A stretch of 64,000 bases of DNA from Desulfobulbaceae bacterium (GCA_013201405.1 JABMJC010000001.1:13878-77877); one strand, 5' to 3'. Numbered from the stretch's first letter, positions 20,187 through 31,811 are shown. The notes: generated from the sequence alone by a model not told the origin. Numbers and translations are program-made.

Positions 20187-20462
20187 TTATTGTTCGGTCC
20201 GTTCTATTTCGGTGGCCACATGCCTGCCATCCCGAACAGCAAAGTCTACTTCGACTTTGTCGCCGATTTTTAGATCAGCAAAATTTTTAAGACCATCGTC
20301 ATAATCGGTTTGAGCGTTGGTATAGAAGGTAATGCCCTGAACGACAAAGCTGGCATTTTTCGGATCAATGGAGGTGATGGCGCCTTCCACGTCATCCGCC
20401 AAGGCTGTACCAAAAACAAAAACACTACCCAAAATGGCCAAGCCAACTATCATCTTTTTCAT
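20187..20462 (-). CDS. Small exported OB-fold-like protein (DUF5666-like)
   Basis: Signal peptide ending ALA; EGAITSID..FVVQG..T.Y..L..GDKVEV..ATEIE pattern; GGAGG RBS. Confidence 0.65.
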   Translation of the reverse strand: MKKMIVGLAILGSVFVFGTALADDVEGAITSIDPKNASFVVQGITFYTNAQTDYDDGLKNFADLKIGDKVEVDFAVRDGRHVATEIERTEQ

Positions 20463-20617: not shown

Positions 20618-21916
20618 TCAGAAGGAACGCTTGTCGATCACCCGCTTGGCCTTGCCTTCGGAACGCTCAAGCGTCTTTTCTTCCACCAGTTTCACCTCGA
20701 TATTCACCCCGAGCTGGGAACTCAGGCGGCGCTTGATTTGATCCACGATCTCGCGTTGTTTTTTCATCTGGTCGGAAAAAAGGGATTCTGTCACCTCCAC
20801 CAGTACGGTCACCCGGTCGGCATGGTGTTCCCGTTCCACAATGATCTGGTAGTGTGGCTTGGTACCTTCCACCTCAAAGAGTGCCTTTTCAATTTGCAGC
20901 GGAAAGATGTTGACCCCTTTGATGATCAGCATGTCATCGCTGCGGCCCATTACCCGTTCCATCCGTTTGAAGCTGCGGCCGCAGGGACAGGTGCCGGGCA
21001 GGATGCGGCTCAGATCCCTGGAGCGGTAGCGGATCATGGGAAAGGCCTCCTTGGTGAGGGTAGTGATGACCAGCTCGCCCACTTCTCCTTCTGGCACGGG
21101 CTCCAGGGTGACAGGATCCAGCACCTCCACCAGGAAATGGTCCTCATTGATGTGCAGACCATTGCATTCCTGGCACTCGCCCGAAATACCCGGGCCCATT
21201 ACTTCCGATAGGCCATAGTTGTCGGTGGCTAGGATGCCCAGTTTCTGGTGGATCTCCTGTCGCATGGCTTCTGACCAGGGTTCTCCGCCAAAGAGGCCGT
21301 AGCGCAGAGAAAGGCCGCTGGGGTTGATGCCCATATCCATCATGGTATCAGCCAGGACCAGCGAATAGGAGGGTGTACTCACCAGGGCCGTGCTCTTGAA
21401 ATCCTGCATGATCTGGATTTGGCGTTTGGTATTACCCGCAGATATGGGGATGACCGAGGTGCCGATCAGCTCGGCGCCGTAGTGCAGACCAAAACCGCCA
21501 GTGAACAGGCCATAGCCAAAGGCGATTTGGATGACATCGTTCTTGCCCACGCCTGCCGCGGTAATGATGCGGGCCACCAGATTTGACCAGGTTCTGATGT
21601 CATTTTTAGTGTATCCCACTACCGTGGCCTGGCCGGTGGTGCCGGAGGAGGCGTGTACCCGCACTACATCGCGCAGGGGTACGGCAAAGAGACCATAGGG
21701 ATAGTTGTCGCGCAGATCCTGTTTGACGGTAAATGGTAGGCGGCGCAGATCATCCAGGGAGTGGATATCATCGTGGTTGACGCGCAGCTCCGCAAACTTT
21801 TTCCTGTAAAAGGGGACATGGGTGCCCACCCGGTAGAGGGTAGACTGCAGCCGTTCCAGCTGAAGCTGTTTGAGATCATCTTCTTTGATACATTCCTTGT
21901 CCGGTTCCCAGAGCAT
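20618..21916 (-). CDS. paaK: Phenylacetate--CoA ligase family protein (copy 1)
   Basis: [42 protein letters not shown]. Confidence 0.9.
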
Positions 21917-21990
21917 AGCGGTTGAATTTGTATAAAGGTTTGTAAAGGATTGTGGTACTGACAGGCGAAGAATGGCCGGCCAGCCACAGC

Positions 21991-22716
21991 TCAGCCTATT
22001 TGTTCCCTGCCCAGATAGGCCCGTTGCACATCGTTGTTGGCCAAAAGTTCTGCAGCCTTGCCCTGCACAATGATTTTGCCGGTTTCCAACACATAACCAC
22101 GGTCGGCAATGTCCAGCGCAGCCCGGGCGTTTTGTTCAATGAGCAGCACGGTGTTGCCTTCGGCACGGAGCTGGGCAATAATGGTGAAAATTTCCCGCAC
22201 AATGAGTGGAGCCAGGCCGGTGGAGGGTTCATCCATCATCACTAGACGCGGTTTGGCCATGAGCGCGCGCGCCATGGCCAGCATCTGCTGCTCGCCACCC
22301 GAAAGTGTGCCGGCCAGCTGGCTGCGCCTGGCCTGGAGCACGGGAAAACGGGCGTATTGCTGCTCCATCTGGCTCCGCAGGGCTGCTGTACCGTTTCTTT
22401 TACGCAGGATGGAGCCGCCCAGCAACAGATTGTCTTCCACGCTCATGGAGGCAAAGACTTGGCGTCCTTCCGGCACCAGCACACAGCCCAGGGCAGCCAT
22501 GACCTCGGCTGGAGTACGGGTGATATCCTCTTCCTGGAAGAACAGGTCTCCCCGCCAGGGTTTAAGTAAGCCGGCCACCACATGCACGAGGGTGGTCTTG
22601 CCTGCCCCGTTGGCGCCGATGATGGCGACAATTTCCCCTGACCGCACATGCAGAGAGATATTTTTCAGCACCCGCAGCTGCCCATAGCCGCTTTCCAGGT
22701 TACGGATGGTCAGCAT
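21991..22716 (-). CDS. livF: HAAT-type ABC transporter ATPase (LivF-like)
   Basis: [33 protein letters not shown]. Confidence 0.9.
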
Positions 22717-22764
22717 GGCTGCAGCTCCTGATGGCCTGGGCTGAAGCGCCGGGCAACTGTGCTT

Positions 22765-23532
22765 TTATCTGGCCGGTTCATGGTCCTCCCCCAGATAGGC
22801 AGCGATGACCTCGGGATTGCGCTGAATGTTCGTGGGACTGTCCTCTGCCAGCTTGCGGCCTGAACTGAGCACCACGATTTCATCGCAAATATCCATGACC
22901 AAGGACATATCGTGCTCCACCAAGAGTACGGTGATGTTCTGTTCCCGGATTGTTGTAATCAGACGGCCAAGTTCTGCGGTTTCGTAGATGTTGAGGCCGG
23001 CTGCGGGTTCATCTAAGAGCAGCAGCTGCGGATCAGCAGCCAGGGCCCGGGCCAGCTCCACTGCCCGTTGCTGGCCAAAGGCGAGGGCATCTGTGGGACT
23101 GTGGGCAAGATCTGCGATATTTAAAAATTCGAGACAGGCCATACTTTTATCCCGAATGGCCGCCTCTTCTCGCCGGTGTTTGGGCAGGGGCAGCATGCCG
23201 GCGAGGAAGCCGGCCCGGCCCCTGGTATGTGCCCCCACCATCACACATTCCAGCACCTTCATACCGCTAAAGAGCTTGATGTTTTGAAAGGTGCGGGCAA
23301 TGCCCAGGGCAGCGGTCTGATAGGCTTTGAGCCCTTGAATCTCCCGGCCATTCAAGCGGATGCTCCCACTGCTGAGCGGGGTGTTGCAGGCAATTAGGTT
23401 AAAGAGTGTGCTTTTGCCTGCGCCATTGGGGCCGATCACCCCCTTGATGCAGCCGGTGGCCACGGTGAAACTAACATTGTCCACCGCTTGCAGGCCGCCA
23501 AAATGTTTGTGCACTTTGTGTAGTTCGAGCAT
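22765..23532 (-). CDS. livG: HAAT-type ABC transporter ATPase (LivG-like)
   Basis: True start MLELHKVHKHFGGL at 23532; GPNGAGKST, ARTFQN, DEPAAGL, VEHDM. Confidence 0.9.
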   Translation of the reverse strand: MLELHKVHKHFGGLQAVDNVSFTVATGCIKGVIGPNGAGKSTLFNLIACNTPLSSGSIRLNGREIQGLKAYQTAALGIARTFQNIKLFSGMKVLECVMVGAHTRGRAGFLAGMLPLPKHRREEAAIRDKSMACLEFLNIADLAHSPTDALAFGQQRAVELARALAADPQLLLLDEPAAGLNIYETAELGRLITTIREQNITVLLVEHDMSLVMDICDEIVVLSSGRKLAEDSPTNIQRNPEVIAAYLGEDHEPAR

Positions 23533-23540
23533 GGGGGCTC

Positions 23541-24647
23541 TCAGCTCTGTCTGTGGCGAGTGGCGGGCCACAGGCGTCGCCAGGGAATGCGGTTGCTCAA
23601 CTGCAACAGGCCGCCAGGTGCAAAGAGCATCACTGCCAAAAGAATCAGGCCAAAAACCGCATCGTCGTAGCTGCCAAAGACCCCGCGCAGGGAGAGAAAG
23701 GACAGGCCAACTCCCATAATCAATGCACCCCAGAGGCTGGTCATACCGCCAACAGCCACCAGGGCGACATAGCGTACCGATTTCATCACCGTGGCCTCCT
23801 CCGGGCCTATACCCTCGTTGAAGTGGGTGAGCAGTACACCGGCCAGGGCGGCGTAGACCGCGCTGAGTACAAAGACCTGCAGCTTGGCGCGGCTGGTATC
23901 CACGCCACAGGCCTCGGCTGCTTCTTCTGAGCCGTGCAGGGCACGCAGGGCCCGGCCCGAGCGGGAACGGGTCATCAGGTTGAGCAACAGCAGCAGTCCC
24001 AAGAGCAGCACGGTCCAGGCTACATAGTAGTTGAAGATACGCAGGTTGCTCTCCCCGGTGATCATGATAGCCCCTGGGCTGAGTAAGCCTGCGGGCAACA
24101 GCACAAAGCCAGGCACCTGGGAGATGCCGTCTGCTTCGCCGAAGGCGGGCAGTGCCAACACCATGCGGTAAATAATGGTGCCAAAACCCAAGGTGGCCAT
24201 GGCCAGGTAATGTCCGCGCAGCTTGAGTACCGGTACGCCTAATACCAGGGCGACCAGGGCAGCCACGGTAATGGCGGCAAGGCCGGCCGTCCATGGGGCA
24301 CAGGTGAGCAGGCTCTCGCCATAGAGATTTTCCCAGGTGAAGAGCAAGCCGGCCTGCTTGAGTAGTCCGACCACCGGGCTGGCGGCAAAGGGGGTAAGGT
24401 CGTAGGTGGTCAGCAGGGCAGAGATATAGCCGCCAATGGCGAAAAAGCCTGCGTGGCCGATGGAGATCTGGCCGGCATACCCCATGAGCGCACAGAGTCC
24501 GATGACCACCAGGCCGTAATAGGCGGCCATGGTCAGTTGAGTAAGGTAGTACTCGGTGCCGGTTATGCTGGTGAAAAACTGCACCAGGACCACGGCCGCA
24601 ACCAACAGGCCCAGCTTGGCCTGGGATGTGCGCATCTGTCCCACCAT
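23541..24647 (-). CDS. livM: HAAT-type ABC transporter permease (LivM-like)
   Basis: MGYAGQISIGHAGFF, LRGHYLAMATL, SGRALRA; TAATG overlap with livH. Confidence 0.88.
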   Translation of the reverse strand: MVGQMRTSQAKLGLLVAAVVLVQFFTSITGTEYYLTQLTMAAYYGLVVIGLCALMGYAGQISIGHAGFFAIGGYISALLTTYDLTPFAASPVVGLLKQAGLLFTWENLYGESLLTCAPWTAGLAAITVAALVALVLGVPVLKLRGHYLAMATLGFGTIIYRMVLALPAFGEADGISQVPGFVLLPAGLLSPGAIMITGESNLRIFNYYVAWTVLLLGLLLLLNLMTRSRSGRALRALHGSEEAAEACGVDTSRAKLQVFVLSAVYAALAGVLLTHFNEGIGPEEATVMKSVRYVALVAVGGMTSLWGALIMGVGLSFLSLRGVFGSYDDAVFGLILLAVMLFAPGGLLQLSNRIPWRRLWPATRHRQS

Positions 24648-25537
24648 TAGAATGCCTTGAGCCGGGCGACCGCAGATGAGCCGAACAAGCCGTGGGGCTT
24701 GATGAACAGGATGAGTAAAAGCAGGCTGACAGCCACTGCATCCTGAAAGGCTAAAGGTACCAGGGTGATGGAAAAGGCTTCGAGGATACCCAAGAGCAAA
24801 CCAGCCGCGACTGCCGCCATGGAGTTGCCCAGACCGCCGAGGATGGCGGCGGTAAAACCCTTGAGAGCCAGGGCTGCGCCCGAGTCGTACTGGGTGTAGG
24901 TGATGGGCGAGATCATGCAGCCGGCCAGGGCGCCCATGCCTGCGCTGAGCACAAAGGAAAGGGTGACCATGTTGCGGGTCTTGATGCCGCACAGGGCTGC
25001 AGCAGTACGGTTCACCGCGCAGGCACGCATTTCCCGGCCAAGGGTGCTGCGGTTGAAAAACAGGTGCAGCGCAGCCACCATGCAGCCACAGGCTAAAAGC
25101 ACCCAGACAACTTGCGGCGACAGACGCACCGGGCCGAATGTCCAGGCAGTGATGGCGTCGCCATAAAAGTATGGCAGGCTACGGATACCCTCACCCCATA
25201 TGTGCAGCGCCCCCTCACGGAGCAGGATGGATATGCCGATGGTGATGATGAGCATCTGCAGGATGCTGGGTTGACGCAACCAACGGATGCAGCACAGTTC
25301 CATGAGCGCGCCAATAAGCATGGTCAGGGCAACAGCCGCGGCAATGGCCCAGGCAAGCGGCAGCCACTGGACGAGGCTGATGGCGATCATGCCGCCCAGC
25401 ATAACGAATTCGCCCTGGGCAAAATTGATGATGCCAGTGCTGTTGTAGATGATGTTGAAGCCAACGGCAACCACCGCATACACTGCACCGTAGGTAATAC
25501 CAGCGACCAGGTACTGGAAAAAAAGCTCAAGACTCAT
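24647..25537 (-). CDS. livH: HAAT-type ABC transporter permease (LivH-like)
   Basis: INFAQGEF, GREMRA, ALKGFTAAILGGLG. Confidence 0.88.
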   Translation of the reverse strand: MSLELFFQYLVAGITYGAVYAVVAVGFNIIYNSTGIINFAQGEFVMLGGMIAISLVQWLPLAWAIAAAVALTMLIGALMELCCIRWLRQPSILQMLIITIGISILLREGALHIWGEGIRSLPYFYGDAITAWTFGPVRLSPQVVWVLLACGCMVAALHLFFNRSTLGREMRACAVNRTAAALCGIKTRNMVTLSFVLSAGMGALAGCMISPITYTQYDSGAALALKGFTAAILGGLGNSMAAVAAGLLLGILEAFSITLVPLAFQDAVAVSLLLLILFIKPHGLFGSSAVARLKAF

Positions 25538-25575
25538 GGCGGACTGTGCAAGCTGCTGATGCTGGCCAAAATACC

Positions 25576-26007
25576 TCAGGTAGCGCAGATTTCATGGCTG
25601 GAGACCAGGGCAAAGTCTTTTTCCTTGAGCATGGCCACGGCACCGGGCATATCGTCGAAGCGAAAGATCATGACCGCGCTGCCGTCGGCCCGGTGGGCGT
25701 AGGCATACATGTACTCCACATTGTAGCCGCCTTCGGTCACAGTGCGGAGCACTTCGGCTAGACCACCCACGCGGTCGGGCACAGCCACGGCCACCACATC
25801 GGTTTTGCTGACCGTAAATCCGCCATTTTTCAACACTTCCTGTGCTTTTTCCACATGATTGACAATCAGGCGCAGGATGCCAAAATCAGCGGTATCGGCC
25901 ACGGAAAGTGCCCGGATATTGATGTCGTTGGCTGCCAGAATCGAGGTGATCTCAGCCAGGCGGCCGGATTTGTTTTCGAGAAAAACGGCAATTTGTTCAA
26001 CCTGCAT
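25576..26007 (-). CDS. Tandem ACT-domain protein
   Basis: FLENKSGRLA..INIRALS..FGILRLIV; second ACT VPDRVGGLA..NVEYMY. Confidence 0.88.
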   Translation of the reverse strand: MQVEQIAVFLENKSGRLAEITSILAANDINIRALSVADTADFGILRLIVNHVEKAQEVLKNGGFTVSKTDVVAVAVPDRVGGLAEVLRTVTEGGYNVEYMYAYAHRADGSAVMIFRFDDMPGAVAMLKEKDFALVSSHEICAT

Positions 26008-26084
26008 GGTGCCTCCCGAATAAAGATGTGGGCATGGGGTGTGACAGAAGTCCTTGGTCCCTGCTCTGGTTGGTCACTAGCCTC

Positions 26085-27386
26085 CTACTGGGCACGCCGA
26101 TCAATGACCCGTTGCGCCTTGCCTTCGGAGCGCTGGATACTGCGGGGTTCAACCAGTCTCACCTGGCAACTTACCCCGAGCATGTCTTTTATTTCCCTTT
26201 GAATGCTTCTGGTCAAATGTTCCAATACTTTGATTTCTCCTGAAAAAACGCGCTCACTCACCTCCACCAGCACGGCCATCACATCCAGGCTGCCATCCCG
26301 GCTCACCTCGATCTGATAATGCGGTTCCACGCCGTTGATGCCCATGAGCACATGTTCCACCTGCGAGGGGAACACGTTCACCCCGCGGATAATCAGCATA
26401 TCATCGCTGCGGCCACTGACTTTGGCCATGCGCACCAGGCTGCGGCCGCAGTCGCAGGGCTCAAGCGTGAGGCGGGAAATATCCTTGGTGCGGTAACGGA
26501 TCAGCGGCAGGGCTTCCTTGGTCAGGGTGGTGAAAACCAATTCGCCCTCTGTTTCCAGCGGTTGGGTTTCCAAGGTATCTGGGTTGATGATTTCCGGCAG
26601 GAAATTGTCCTCCAGGATGTGCATGCCTTGCCTGGAATGCAGGCATTCCATGGCCACGCCCGGGCCGATTATTTCAGAAAGTCCGTAGATATCGACTGCC
26701 CGCAGGCCGAGTTTGCGCTCCACCTCTTCGCGCATGTTCACGCTCCAGGGTTCAGCCCCGTGGATACCCACCCGCAGTTTCAGATCACCTGGATCAATGC
26801 CTGCGTCCTGCATGGCATCTGCCAGATTGAGGGCATAGGATGGGGTGGAAAGCAGCACGGTTGAGCCAAAGTCGCGCATAATAGTGATTTGGCGTTTGGA
26901 GTTGCCCCCGGACACTGGTATAACCGTGGCACCCAAGGCCTCGATACCGTAGTGTGCCCCCAGGCCGCCGGTGAACAGTCCATAACCATAGGCATTGTGT
27001 ACCAGATCACCGCGATGGACGCCAGCCATGGCCAGGCAACGGGCCATCACCGCAGACCAGAGCTGAATATCGGTCATGGTGTAACCCACCACCGTGGGTT
27101 TGCCGGTGGTGCCGGAAGAGGCGTGCAGGCGGATGACCTCCTCCATGGGCACAGCGAACAGCCCGTAGGGGTAGTTGTCGCGCAGATCCTCCTTGGTGGT
27201 GAAGGGTAAATGCTGCAGATCGTCTAAGGTGCGGATGTCTTCAGGCTTGATGCCAGCCTGCTCCATCTTTTTCCGGTATGGCGGCACACTGGCATAGACC
27301 CGCGTCACCAGTGCCTGCAGACGCTGCAGCTGAATGGACTCTAGCCCTGTCCTGGGCAAGGTTTCTATTTCATCAATCCCGATCAT
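26085..27386 (-). CDS. paaK: Phenylacetate--CoA ligase family protein (copy 2)
   Basis: [50 protein letters not shown]. Confidence 0.9.
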
Positions 27387-27419
27387 GAACGCCTCATGTA
27401 ATACCGTTTTGCCGACCGT

Positions 27420-28004
27420 TCAGGCATGCACCGCTGCCCGTCCAGCTAGAAAGGCCTTTTTATTCACCCTGCGGAACTGCTCCTTCACGGTTGTATCGAT
27501 CACCTGTAGAAAAATTTCCTGATCAACAGCCAAAAAGTTGGACATGGCGCCCACCATGGCCACATTGACCGTGAGAAGTTCTCCTGCCTCCTGGGCTACG
27601 GCAAGGGCATCAATGACCACCACATTAATCTGGCGCGATCTCAGTTCGTCAAGAATATTGGCAGGATATTCAGCCTTGCCCAAGGCCACCGCAGGCGGCA
27701 GGATTTTCTGGGTATTGACCACCACTGCACTGTCTTTATGCAAATAGGGTAGGTAGCGGGCTGCCTCCAAAATTTCAAAGGCCACAAGAATATCTGCAGC
27801 ACCGGGATCAATTAAAGGAGAATATACTTTCTCCCCGTAGCGCAGGTGCGCCTCCACCGAACCGCCCCGTTGGGCCATGCCGTGTACTTCACTTTTTTTC
27901 ACATCAAAGCCAGCGGCCAGTTGGGCATGGGCGGTGAGTTCACTGGCCAGCAGGATGCCCTGGCCGCCAACTCCGGTAAAGAGGATATTGCCACTTGGTT
28001 TCAT
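27420..28004 (-). CDS. iorB: Indolepyruvate:ferredoxin oxidoreductase beta subunit
   Basis: GVGGQGILLAS, SEVHGMAQRGGSV; start MKPSGN at 28004 overlaps the iorA stop. Confidence 0.92.
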   Translation of the reverse strand: MKPSGNILFTGVGGQGILLASELTAHAQLAAGFDVKKSEVHGMAQRGGSVEAHLRYGEKVYSPLIDPGAADILVAFEILEAARYLPYLHKDSAVVVNTQKILPPAVALGKAEYPANILDELRSRQINVVVIDALAVAQEAGELLTVNVAMVGAMSNFLAVDQEIFLQVIDTTVKEQFRRVNKKAFLAGRAAVHA

Positions 28005-29818
28005 GCGCCTTCCTCCTCGTAACGGGTGATGGCTTCGAACTTGCAAACCGCTGCGCACTGGCCGCAGCCATTACATTGCAGTTCAGTGATGCGAGCAAAG
28101 CCCTTTTGTTTTTCACGGTAGCCCCGGGCCACGGCTTCCTCCGGGCCAAGCGGTGTCCAGCTGATGGCTGGGCAGCCCATCTGTACACACAGGGTACAGC
28201 CGGTACAGTTTTCCGTTTTGGTGTAATAGACTGGTTTTTTACGCCGCGCCTCCTCCGGCAAAAGCACACAGGGTGCGCGGCTGATGATCACCGAGAGATC
28301 CGGCGAGGCGATTTCCTCTTTTAAGACCTCACGGGTGGCCTCCACATCGTGCGGGTTGACCACCACCACCCTGGGCACGCCCAGGGCCTGGCAAAGTTTT
28401 TCCAGATCGAGCTGGGGGGCGACATCACCATGGATGCCCTTGCCGCTGGCCGGATTGGGTTGATGCCCGGTCATGGCCGTGGTGCGGTTATCCAGGATGA
28501 TCACCGAGGCGTAGGAGCTGTTGTAGACTGCGTTCAAAAGGCCGGTGATACCGGAGTGCATGAAGGTGGAGTCACCCAGTACGGCCACCACCTTACCAGT
28601 GCCGCTATCCCCCAGGGCTTTGGCCATGCCGTGGGCCACCGTGATTGAGGCGCCCATGCAGACGCAGGCATCTATGGCGGAAAGGGGTGGTAAGAATCCG
28701 AGGGTGTAGCAGCCAATATCGCCCGACACAAAGACATCCTTCATCTTGGACAGGCCGTAGAAAATGCCCCGGTGCGGGCAGCCAGCACACATGTTAGGCG
28801 GCCGCATCGGCAGCTCGAGCGGTTTGAAGGGTTCGCCCACCGAGTCGGGCTCAATGGCCTTGCGCACCAGAAAAGAGTTCAGCTCACCCCGGCTGGGAAT
28901 CAGATCCTTACCATGGCAGGTTATGCCCATGGCCTTGATGTGCGTCTCCAGAAAGGGATCAAGCTCTTCCACGACCATCAATTCGTCCACGCTGGCAGCA
29001 AATTCCCGAATTTTCTGCTCGGGAAGTGGCCAAACCATGCCCAGTTTCAGCACCGGCGCCTTGGGAAAGGCCTCTTTTACATAGTTGTAAGCAACTCCTG
29101 CGCAGATAAAGCCCCGCCGACCCTCTCCGGGTTCAATCCGGTTTTCGGGCAAAGTTTCGGCCAGCTCGCGCATCTTGGCCATGCGCTCCTCCATGGCCAG
29201 CCTGCGCAGTTTGGCCAGGCCGGGCAGCATCACCAGTTTGGCCGGAGTTTTTTCTATGCTCGGCTCGGGTGTTTGCTGGCGCTCACCCTTGGGCACCACC
29301 CCTTTCACATGGGCAATGCGGGTAGTGGTGCGCAGCAGCACCGGGGTATCCAGTTCTTCGCTTAAGCTGTAGGCGCGCTGCATCATGGAGCGCGCCTCGG
29401 CCGGATCGGATGGCTCCAGCATGGGCATCTTGGCGGCAAAGGCGTAGTTGCGGTTATCCTGCTCGTTTTGGGAGCTGTGCATCTCCGGATCGTCGGCAGT
29501 AATGATGACCAGACCACCGCGCACTCCGGTATAGGCAGAGGTGAAGAGCGGGTCTGCCGCTACGTTCAGGCCCACGTGTTTCATGGTGGCGAGCGCGCGT
29601 GCACCGGCAAAGGAGGCACCGAGAGCCACCTCCAGTCCCGCCTTTTCGTTGGGTGCCCATTCGGTATACACGCCCTCGTAGCCGGCAAGATTTTCCATGA
29701 TTTCCGTGGATGGCGTTCCCGGGTAGCCGGAGGCAACCCGTACCCCTGCCTCCCAGGCGCCAAGCGCGATGGCCTCGTTACCGGAAAGCCAGAGTTGTTC
29801 TTGCAGTTCCTCTGCCAT
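28001..29818 (-). CDS. iorA: Indolepyruvate:ferredoxin oxidoreductase alpha subunit
   Basis: GYPGTPSTE, MKHVGLNVAAD, CAGCPH, GDSTF.HSG ThDP motif, two ferredoxin-type Cys motifs (CTGCTLC, CNGCGQC). Confidence 0.94.
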   Translation of the reverse strand: MAEELQEQLWLSGNEAIALGAWEAGVRVASGYPGTPSTEIMENLAGYEGVYTEWAPNEKAGLEVALGASFAGARALATMKHVGLNVAADPLFTSAYTGVRGGLVIITADDPEMHSSQNEQDNRNYAFAAKMPMLEPSDPAEARSMMQRAYSLSEELDTPVLLRTTTRIAHVKGVVPKGERQQTPEPSIEKTPAKLVMLPGLAKLRRLAMEERMAKMRELAETLPENRIEPGEGRRGFICAGVAYNYVKEAFPKAPVLKLGMVWPLPEQKIREFAASVDELMVVEELDPFLETHIKAMGITCHGKDLIPSRGELNSFLVRKAIEPDSVGEPFKPLELPMRPPNMCAGCPHRGIFYGLSKMKDVFVSGDIGCYTLGFLPPLSAIDACVCMGASITVAHGMAKALGDSGTGKVVAVLGDSTFMHSGITGLLNAVYNSSYASVIILDNRTTAMTGHQPNPASGKGIHGDVAPQLDLEKLCQALGVPRVVVVNPHDVEATREVLKEEIASPDLSVIISRAPCVLLPEEARRKKPVYYTKTENCTGCTLCVQMGCPAISWTPLGPEEAVARGYREKQKGFARITELQCNGCGQCAAVCKFEAITRYEEEGA

Positions 29819-30038
29819 AATTTGTTACTCCTTGCCCGCAGCGAGTGGATTGGATCGTGGGTTGGCGTCACCGATGGTGCAACAGGCCCGAAACATAGCT
29901 GCTTTTGTCTGTAGTGTGAATGTTTTGCAGGAAGGCATCCATACTCCTTCTGCCCCTTTTACAGCAAGCCTTTTCCAGCATCTGGAACTGCGCCGCCTGA
30001 TTTTACCCAGGGATGCAGCTGCATGGAGTTGGCTTTTT

Positions 30039-31811
30039 TTATTGTGCGTTGCCGGCTGGCGTGGTGCTGGCCGCCTGAGGGGCTGCCGCTTTAACCCACA
30101 CCGTTTCTGTATTCCAATTCAAGTGCGCTGCCTCCTTGCTGATACTGCTCGCTCCGGCTACCAGGTCTGTGGCCTGCATGAGTTTGACTATCTCCTGACT
30201 GAAGCGGTTGAAACTCATCCCTGTAGTGGGAACAGCCAGGGAGTTGAGCAGTTCCAGGGTGGATTGCGATTTGCCTGCCAGTTGCGCGGAGCGCAGCAGG
30301 TAGACGCCGCTGTTGGCCTGGCCGAGCATTTTACTCAATTCCGGACCCAGTTGCTCTGCCAAGGTCGCAGGGAGTTTTACGGTCGACTGATTCAGGCTAG
30401 TGAGCAGTGGCTGCACAGAACTTTGCATGGAACCAAGCAAAACAAAGTTGTCGCTCAAGCCCAAAGCCGGAACCAGGCCGATATCGCTCATCAGTGGCCA
30501 GGAGTAAAGCTGGATATTGCCTGCCAGCTGCTGTTCTTGACCGGTAAGGCCAAGGGCAGCGCTCATTTGCTGGTTGAGGGCAGTGGCAATGCTGTTCATG
30601 TTGGTACGGTTACGCACAGAGGCAAAGACCGTTATGTCTGGCAGCGGGAAAATACCGGTTTCCACGACATCATTGAGTACCAGGCCATAGAGCGGACCAA
30701 AGGAAGCGGCTGCATCTTCCAGGGGAATACCAAGGATATCTTGTGCCTCCTGCTGCAGGCTGGCATACTCTTCCTGGTCCTCGGTGGCTATCAGGGCTAG
30801 CAGAGATTCTGGTTTGAGCGAGTAACCCCATTGGAAGAACAGGGTGTGCTCGTTCAGCAGGGCCAGGGGGGCTGGACCTTCAGCTGCGGCTGCATCCACC
30901 ATGGCTTTGAAAACGTCGTGCAGTTGTTCATAGCGCAGCTTGATCCGGCTCTTGTTCTGTAAACCCTTGGTGGTCTTGCCAGTGACATCGTAGCCATAGT
31001 CCATGCCTTGCAGATACGAGGCGATGTCTTGGGTGTCCTGATCTTGATCCAGTCGGGCCAGCAGGGCGGCGATACCGGCCAGGTTGTAATAGGCGCGGCT
31101 GTAGGTGTCGGAGGGTGTGGATTCCTTCCGCCAGAAATCAGTGGCCTCCAGGTATGTGGCCTGTGTCTTCAGGGAGGTGCCGGACTCCTTGGTTTGTATG
31201 GCGGCTACAAGGGGCACCTTGTCTTGGGCCAGGAGAACCAATCCTCCTGCATTGTAGCCGTAGAAAATTTCCCTGCCGTTATCCACCTGGATGCGGGTCA
31301 GCTCCAGACCATCGGTCTGCTCCTTGCTGACGGTGATTCCCTTGGCCATGCCGCCGAAGAGTTCGGCCGCAGCCCCTGCATTGGTGGTGGCGTAGACGAG
31401 CGCTGCGCGGCGGAGGGCCTGTCCCGGATCTTCCGAGAGGAGTTGTGTATCTGGTGGTAGAAGCGCCATGGTCAAATCATCGCCAAAAACCGTACGGAAA
31501 ACCGGATTTTTCATGGTGTTGGTGATGCTGTCAAACCACTGATCATAGGCCTGGATTGTATCAGACGTTGCGTCCATGTCCGCAAGAATGGCGTGCATGG
31601 TGTCTTTGGCGAAAAACTGGCCCAGCGGGCTTGCGGCGAAGTTGTCGGTGACGGTGTTGAGGTTGGTCAGCGAGAGTACCAGCAGGGCATCCTGGGGCAT
31701 GTATTCGGCCAGATCCTCTGCTGTTGGGCTGCTTTGCCGACTTGGTACAAAAAGAACCAAACCGATCACTACAAGCAGTGCAGCGGCAATGGCTATCCAC
31801 ATTTTTTTCAT
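30039..31811 (-). CDS. Membrane-anchored periplasmic hypothetical protein (DUF3352-like)
   Basis: 590 aa; N-terminal TM anchor, LAEYMPQDALL motif; GGAGGG RBS. Confidence 0.6.
   Translation of the reverse strand: MKKMWIAIAAALLVVIGLVLFVPSRQSSPTAEDLAEYMPQDALLVLSLTNLNTVTDNFAASPLGQFFAKDTMHAILADMDATSDTIQAYDQWFDSITNTMKNPVFRTVFGDDLTMALLPPDTQLLSEDPGQALRRAALVYATTNAGAAAELFGGMAKGITVSKEQTDGLELTRIQVDNGREIFYGYNAGGLVLLAQDKVPLVAAIQTKESGTSLKTQATYLEATDFWRKESTPSDTYSRAYYNLAGIAALLARLDQDQDTQDIASYLQGMDYGYDVTGKTTKGLQNKSRIKLRYEQLHDVFKAMVDAAAAEGPAPLALLNEHTLFFQWGYSLKPESLLALIATEDQEEYASLQQEAQDILGIPLEDAAASFGPLYGLVLNDVVETGIFPLPDITVFASVRNRTNMNSIATALNQQMSAALGLTGQEQQLAGNIQLYSWPLMSDIGLVPALGLSDNFVLLGSMQSSVQPLLTSLNQSTVKLPATLAEQLGPELSKMLGQANSGVYLLRSAQLAGKSQSTLELLNSLAVPTTGMSFNRFSQEIVKLMQATDLVAGASSISKEAAHLNWNTETVWVKAAAPQAASTTPAGNAQ

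Follow-up and report, generated by a model that had tools for sequence, protein, structure and literature searches.

Aryl acids are converted into aromatic amino acids by way of indolepyruvate:ferredoxin oxidoreductase (IOR) in Methanococcus maripaludis, a route for which Porat et al. 2004 is cited in PMC4162585 and Major et al. 2010 in PMC3462420, and rumen microbes form Phe from phenylacetate (PMC7356843). A Geobacter iorAB-paaK operon (GSU1739 and downstream) was listed in 2009 as a biosynthetic (tryptophan) operon (PMC2700814). That assignment comes from annotation and not from experiment. The gene order of GSU1729–1739 is presumably the same as that described here, with two genes for binding proteins (SBPs).

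In Bacteroides, an IOR-linked AMP-forming ligase was assayed with indole-, phenyl- and hydroxyphenylacetate, whose CoA thioesters it forms, by Jiang et al. 2026, who favoured biosynthesis on a thermodynamic argument; the catabolic pathway in their scheme uses a phosphotransferase and a kinase instead (PMC13285125). Deletion of Bacteroides iorA (BT0430) lowers the production of 4-hydroxyphenylacetate, so that IOR there runs oxidatively in vivo (PMC10746243).

The locus described here lies in a 64-kb stretch of DNA (the window) from a near-complete Desulfobulbus genome (2.46 Mb, 99.99% complete). It shares with M. maripaludis a two-subunit IorAB, a complete de novo pathway, which leaves the aryl-acid route as an alternative, and a proposed reductive carboxylation, and differs in its bacterial host, in the gathering of an importer, two ligases and an ACT protein in one operon, and in that no Ehb-type donor was identified. 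With Geobacter it has iorAB-paaK in common, but not an SBP gene within the operon; with the B. thetaiotaomicron system (BT0430-0429) it shares an IOR, a PaaK-type ligase and a debated direction. The cluster is ordinary: it is widespread in anaerobes, and parts of it have been described before. As its chemistry has been published for other anaerobes, the locus adds testable predictions and not a new system; added here are the missing in-operon SBP, an SBP clade closest to aromatic-acid binders, the old ligase clades, and a complete de novo pathway without paaA-E or bamA.

Gene order and distribution of the cluster

Occupying positions 20618–29818 of the minus strand are nine intact ORFs, tightly spaced and with zero internal stops, in agreement with the nine co-directional genes of the preliminary description. 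From iorA to paaK2 the intergenic gaps are −4, 33, 77, 38, −1, 8, 48 and 74 nt, with the ATG of livM overlapping the stop codon of livH, and the base composition of the operon is about that of the remainder of the window. The features are as follows.

29937–29967, minus strand: sigma70-like promoter candidate TTGCTG ... TATGGAT, 5′ of iorA (alignment with relatives)
28001–29818, minus strand: iorA, IOR alpha subunit, 605 aa (TIGR03336; POR_N, TPP_enzyme_C and Fer4 domains)
27420–28004, minus strand: iorB, IOR beta subunit, 194 aa (NF005325, NF005322), with a 4-nt overlap with iorA
26085–27386, minus strand: paaK1, predicted AMP-forming arylacetate-CoA ligase of the upstream clade, Y133/A144/I233 (TIGR02155; PDB 2Y27/2Y4O)
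25576–26007, minus strand: stand-alone double-ACT protein, 143 aa (PF19571 ACT_8; PDB 2F06)
25538–25575, minus strand: 38-nt spacer without the SBP gene that most relatives have there (locus comparison)
24647–25537, minus strand: livH-type ABC permease (PF02653)
23541–24647, minus strand: livM-type ABC permease, 368 aa (PF02653; start read from the sequence)
22765–23532, minus strand: livG-type ABC ATPase (NF008449, E 5e-77)
21991–22716, minus strand: livF-type ABC ATPase (NF008626, E 2e-74)
20618–21916, minus strand: paaK2, predicted AMP-forming arylacetate-CoA ligase of the downstream clade, F133/F142/L144/N233 (TIGR02155; PDB 2Y27, 4R1L)

IorA, single-copy in the host genome, scores 694.3 bits against the NCBIfam equivalog TIGR03336 (cut-off 650.9). 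IorB is over the cut-offs of two PRK06853 models, NF005325 (254 against 230) and NF005322 (244 against 237), and under that of TIGR03334 (beta). By these equivalog scores, together with the TPP and Fe-S domains, the pair is assigned as an IOR. Throughout, reaction types follow from family membership, and the direction of flow, the substrates and the role of the ACT protein are what we infer.

The order iorA-iorB-paaK-ACT-SBP-livHMGF-paaK recurs in Desulfobulbales, Nitrospirota and others. Among 80 named loci, the full ten-gene order is present in 21, iorA-iorB-paaK-ACT in 43, and a paaK immediately 5′ of the ACT gene in 67. All 29 Desulfobulbus-genus genomes of at least 90% completeness carry iorA, and of 201 genomes sampled across the phylum 126 have the ACT gene. 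A transporter is missing from about 13 Desulfobulbales loci with the arrangement paaK-ACT-paaK, and of the 80 metagenome loci that hold the closest ligases 64 include an ACT gene and 31 ior; the enzymes are therefore the core of the module and the importer an optional insert.

Upstream of iorA, the promoter candidate can be aligned to a conserved block, TTGCCT ... GGTAAGGATG, of about 15 Desulfobulbus loci; promoter and terminator counts are at the level of shuffled sequence. An Rfam scan of this region returned zero elements, and a leader-peptide scan in the window none that was aromatic-rich. In 25 related loci, a T-box search gave a single hit, in L112, which is on the opposite strand; ahead of the module there was none. 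In these scans the window shows no upstream aromatic-responsive leader of the kind by which a T-box- or attenuator-controlled salvage operon is recognized. That no starvation-responsive leader was found upstream is an observation against salvage.

The importer and its binding protein

The livHMGF genes named in the preliminary description are all four present, but it had passed over the absence of the SBP gene found in most relatives. This gene lies directly 3′ of the ACT gene in 55 of the 80 named loci, where the window has the 38-nt spacer. The same gap occurs in G051, G047, G009, G018, G014, G003, G049 and L040, and L045 retains a C-terminal SBP remnant at the ACT-livH position, showing that the SBP gene was deleted in that lineage.

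Encoded elsewhere in the host genome are three LivK-like proteins. Two of the genes have their own permeases and, from their sequences, look like true LIV binders; the true LIV binders of the host match LivJ at 7e-70. The third (C75:10446-11624, genome G000) has no adjoining permease, and its product falls in an orphan clade (support 100 in a quick tree) nested among the operon-type SBPs. Many Desulfobulbus carry both orphan and in-operon copies, and with a separate clade coexisting in this way, relocation of the in-operon gene to C75 is rejected. The two closed genomes without the operon permease (G012, G042) are also without the SBP clade; a counter-example is G049, in which the permease is present and the SBP absent at E 1e-100. 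Because the in-operon gene has been lost, the importer would use the orphan C75 SBP, which we infer to serve the operon permease.

The livH-type permease is only 30–31% identical to the two true LIV permeases of the genome and falls under the LivH profile cut-off, and the operon lies outside the LIV importer class (LivKHMGF), which is defined jointly by a LivJ/K-type binder and LivH/M over cut-off. In a comparison with the PDB, the best solved relatives of both the orphan and the in-operon SBPs are aromatic-acid binders, namely CouP/RPA1789 and kin (E 1e-34 to 2e-39) and, at E 1e-27 to 4e-32, 7YLT, which comes from the IadK2 paper on Variovorax auxin. Amino-acid binders score below these, and E. 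coli LivJ/K is absent from the matches at E 1e-12.

CouP of R. palustris binds phenylpropenoids via His309, Gln305, Arg197, Ser222 and Thr102 (PMC3610893), and Variovorax IadK2, a member of the aromatic B-III subcluster, binds indoleacetate (PMC10374108). In the alignment, all 12 orphan SBPs share the His309 equivalent, as do 49 of the 64 operon SBPs, the remaining 15 having Tyr, and the conserved Phe of B-III is invariant; the Thr102 column holds Ser or Thr. The B-III binders are the best matches of the clade, yet identity to the solved proteins is low and the Arg197 column is mostly Lys, two points that, with the ligase scores under the TIGR02155 cut-off, stand against salvage. A difference from the CouP and IadK2 systems is that those feed catabolism.

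These features of the clade suggest aryl acids, not amino acids, as its ligands, in keeping with the aryl-acid import proposed in the preliminary description. Since its nearest relatives are CouP and IadK2 and not LivJ/K, ‘liv’ is probably a misnomer, and the importer would take up phenylacetate, 4-hydroxyphenylacetate and perhaps indoleacetate.

Direction of flow

The reading that we favour, and hold to be reasonably probable, is an optional salvage route in which arylacetates are imported, ligated to CoA with formation of AMP, carboxylated by IOR and transaminated to aromatic amino acids. The two ligases, with their different pockets, would supply aryl-acetyl-CoAs (the reaction type being that of the family), which IorAB would carboxylate with reduced ferredoxin to arylpyruvates, as shown in Methanococcus. 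The reduced ferredoxin could be supplied by PFOR, for which the genome has a gene of suitable size, and a putative unlinked aminotransferase would convert the arylpyruvates to Phe, Tyr or Trp. No RnfC over cut-off is present in the genome, which is an observation against salvage.

The preliminary description had called for a genome-wide check of the shikimate and chorismate pathway, and none of the genes for shikimate, Trp, Phe or Tyr synthesis is missing. Profile searches of the genome recovered a class II DAHP synthase, DHQ synthase, aroA, aroC and shikimate kinase, with aroD- and aroE-like ORFs read from the sequence next to aroA; tblastn recovered trpA-E, pheA and a prephenate dehydrogenase, and no archaeal-type DHQ synthase II was found. 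Auxotrophy is ruled out by these genes. The lack of an auxotrophic need speaks against salvage; salvage would accordingly be optional, saving energy and not filling a gap.

Three features favour the biosynthetic direction proposed in the preliminary description: ligases that form AMP, an importer, and the absence of ring degradation. The Bacteroides IOR knockout opposes it. IOR is reversible, so both directions of flow may occur, and the opposite one, already allowed for at the outset, is kept here as a rival. Aromatic amino acids or arylpyruvates, imported or overflowing from synthesis, would then be decarboxylated by IOR to aryl-acetyl-CoA, with reduction of ferredoxin; a reversed PaaK or an unlinked ADP-forming synthetase would release the aryl acid for excretion. 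The lowered 4-hydroxyphenylacetate of the BT0430 deletion and the fermentative role of Pyrococcus IOR agree with a mainly oxidative module, as does the binding of 4-hydroxyphenylpyruvate by CouP, owing to which the importer could also take arylpyruvates. Two ATP-grasp acyl-CoA synthetase-type genes, on C140 and C41, could release aryl acids and so also weigh against salvage. However, the linked ligases are AMP-forming, favouring thioester synthesis, the SBP lies outside the amino-acid clade, and the cluster is without the phosphotransferase and kinase pair; we consider a mainly oxidative role rather unlikely.

The ligases and the ACT protein

The pair of PaaK paralogues noted in the preliminary description is 55% identical and comprises the sole two such ligases in the genome. 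Full-length homology, the P-loop SSGTTG, the YGLSE motif and the catalytic Lys place both in the PaaK subgroup of aryl-CoA ligases. Against TIGR02155 they score 605 (paaK1) and 565 bits (paaK2), under the equivalog cut-off of 646, and they are classed by sequence as PaaK-like and not as catabolic PaaK. The closest structures are PDB 2Y27/2Y4O for paaK1 (E 6e-143), and 2Y27 (E 2e-135) and 4R1L (E 2e-130) for paaK2.

In a FastTree phylogeny, the upstream and downstream copies form separate, old clades spanning phyla, the downstream clade holding 63 downstream copies with support 100. Numbered by the window ligases, the upstream copies (n = 78) have Tyr133 in 74, Ala144 in 63 and Ile233 in 74, and the downstream copies (n = 64) have Phe133 in 64, Leu144 in 61 and Asn233 in 63; the equivalent columns are Tyr/Ala/Ile in Burkholderia PaaK1 and Phe/Ile/Ile in PaaK2. 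We take these three positions to line the substrate pocket, as is reported of Law and Boulanger 2011; the residue roles given here draw on that work and on a review. PDB 4R1L, presumably the Bacteroides ligase, differs from both window ligases at pocket positions.

Of the Burkholderia enzymes, PaaK1 is the one with the wider pocket and with relaxed specificity (PMC4498308). The B. cenocepacia pair shows the same contrast of Tyr with Phe at 133 and of Ala with a large aliphatic residue at 144, but serves aerobic ring cleavage, and window PaaK2 adds Asn233 and Phe142. Different substrates had been proposed for the two paralogues; the fixed pocket-position differences between the clades support this indirectly, and paaK1 and paaK2 are likely to differ in specificity.

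A further alternative is that the importer and the ligases handle acids of another kind (benzoate-type, branched-chain or other small ones) or serve another pathway, with IOR as a broad 2-oxoacid oxidoreductase. The ligase scores below the PaaK equivalog cut-off are compatible with it, as are the 2-hydroxyisobutyrate and polyaromatic ligases within the PaaK clade and Asn233 of PaaK2, which is Ile in both Burkholderia enzymes. Both ligases are, however, 51–53% identical to E. coli PaaK over their full length, PaaK1 equals Burkholderia PaaK1 at the pocket positions, and IorA is over its equivalog cut-off, making this alternative improbable.

That aryl acids are imported and activated to be broken down completely for carbon is very improbable. 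PaaK does start phenylacetate degradation in other bacteria, but paaA-E, paaI and paaX have zero tblastn matches in the whole genome, none of 46 genus genomes has BamA/Oah over cut-off, and paaA-E is found in 0 of the 80 metagenome loci mentioned above, so that the ring is not degradable by known routes. The absence of ring-cleavage and benzoyl-CoA genes first noted at the locus extends, for paaA-E and BamA/Oah, to the genome.

Between paaK1 and the transporter genes is the ACT protein, an ACT pair of family PF19571 (match to PDB 2F06, E 7e-30). From the adjacency of the genes, it probably senses a ligand on behalf of the ligases, and this adjacency is also the basis for the feedback role proposed in the preliminary description; a complex prediction with both ligases scored 0.01 (mark 0.32), a result that speaks neither for nor against interaction. 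Taken further, salvage could involve an ABC importer of high affinity that is dedicated to arylacetates and has been wrongly annotated as Liv throughout Desulfobacterota and Nitrospirota. Its cargo would go to two ligases that divide the substrates between them, with the stand-alone double-ACT subunit as allosteric regulator. We offer this fuller scheme only tentatively; in the literature searched, no importer and no ACT regulator is described for an aryl-acid salvage route.

If salvage is the true role of the module, a very common operon of anaerobes would draw phenylacetate, hydroxyphenylacetate and indoleacetate into assimilation and would not be a degradation cluster; the transporter now labelled ‘branched-chain amino acid’ would need renaming.

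Genes flanking the operon

Upstream of iorA and downstream of paaK2, the first and last genes of the operon, are:
Window 30039-31811, (-): 590-aa protein, probably exported
Window 20187-20462, (-): 91-aa DUF5666 protein, after paaK2

Searches with the 590-aa protein against Pfam and NCBIfam profiles returned zero matches. Among the compared loci, its gene lies 5' of iorA in Desulfobulbus and a few close relatives, with identities of 27-37%, and none was seen among the more distant loci. Among the loci compared, the DUF5666 gene after paaK2 was seen in this genome and its very close relative G051 alone; in most Desulfobulbus an FKBP-type isomerase gene comes next.

The orphan SBP gene lies on contig C75 in this genome, versus ~5.6 kb downstream of paaK2 in G051:
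L138, G051:C3:48330-49508, strand opposite to paaK2: orphan SBP gene

Reduced clusters

Two closed Desulfobulbus genomes have ior clusters from which the transporter genes are absent:
L150, G042:C1:2353000-2366000: reduced ior cluster
L120, G012:C1:1124000-1142000: reduced ior cluster

One of the two clusters reads iorAB-ACT-paaK2, the other iorAB-paaK1-ACT, and each genome carries a divergent ligase gene elsewhere, outside the reduced cluster.

Genes resembling pheA

Encoded elsewhere in this genome is a predicted fusion protein:
G000:C157:31290-32972: 560-aa ORF, PheA-like part and prephenate dehydrogenase-like part

Directly behind paaK-ACT in two low-GC metagenome loci (L185 and L190) is a pheA-like gene, an arrangement that points to a connection with Phe biosynthesis.
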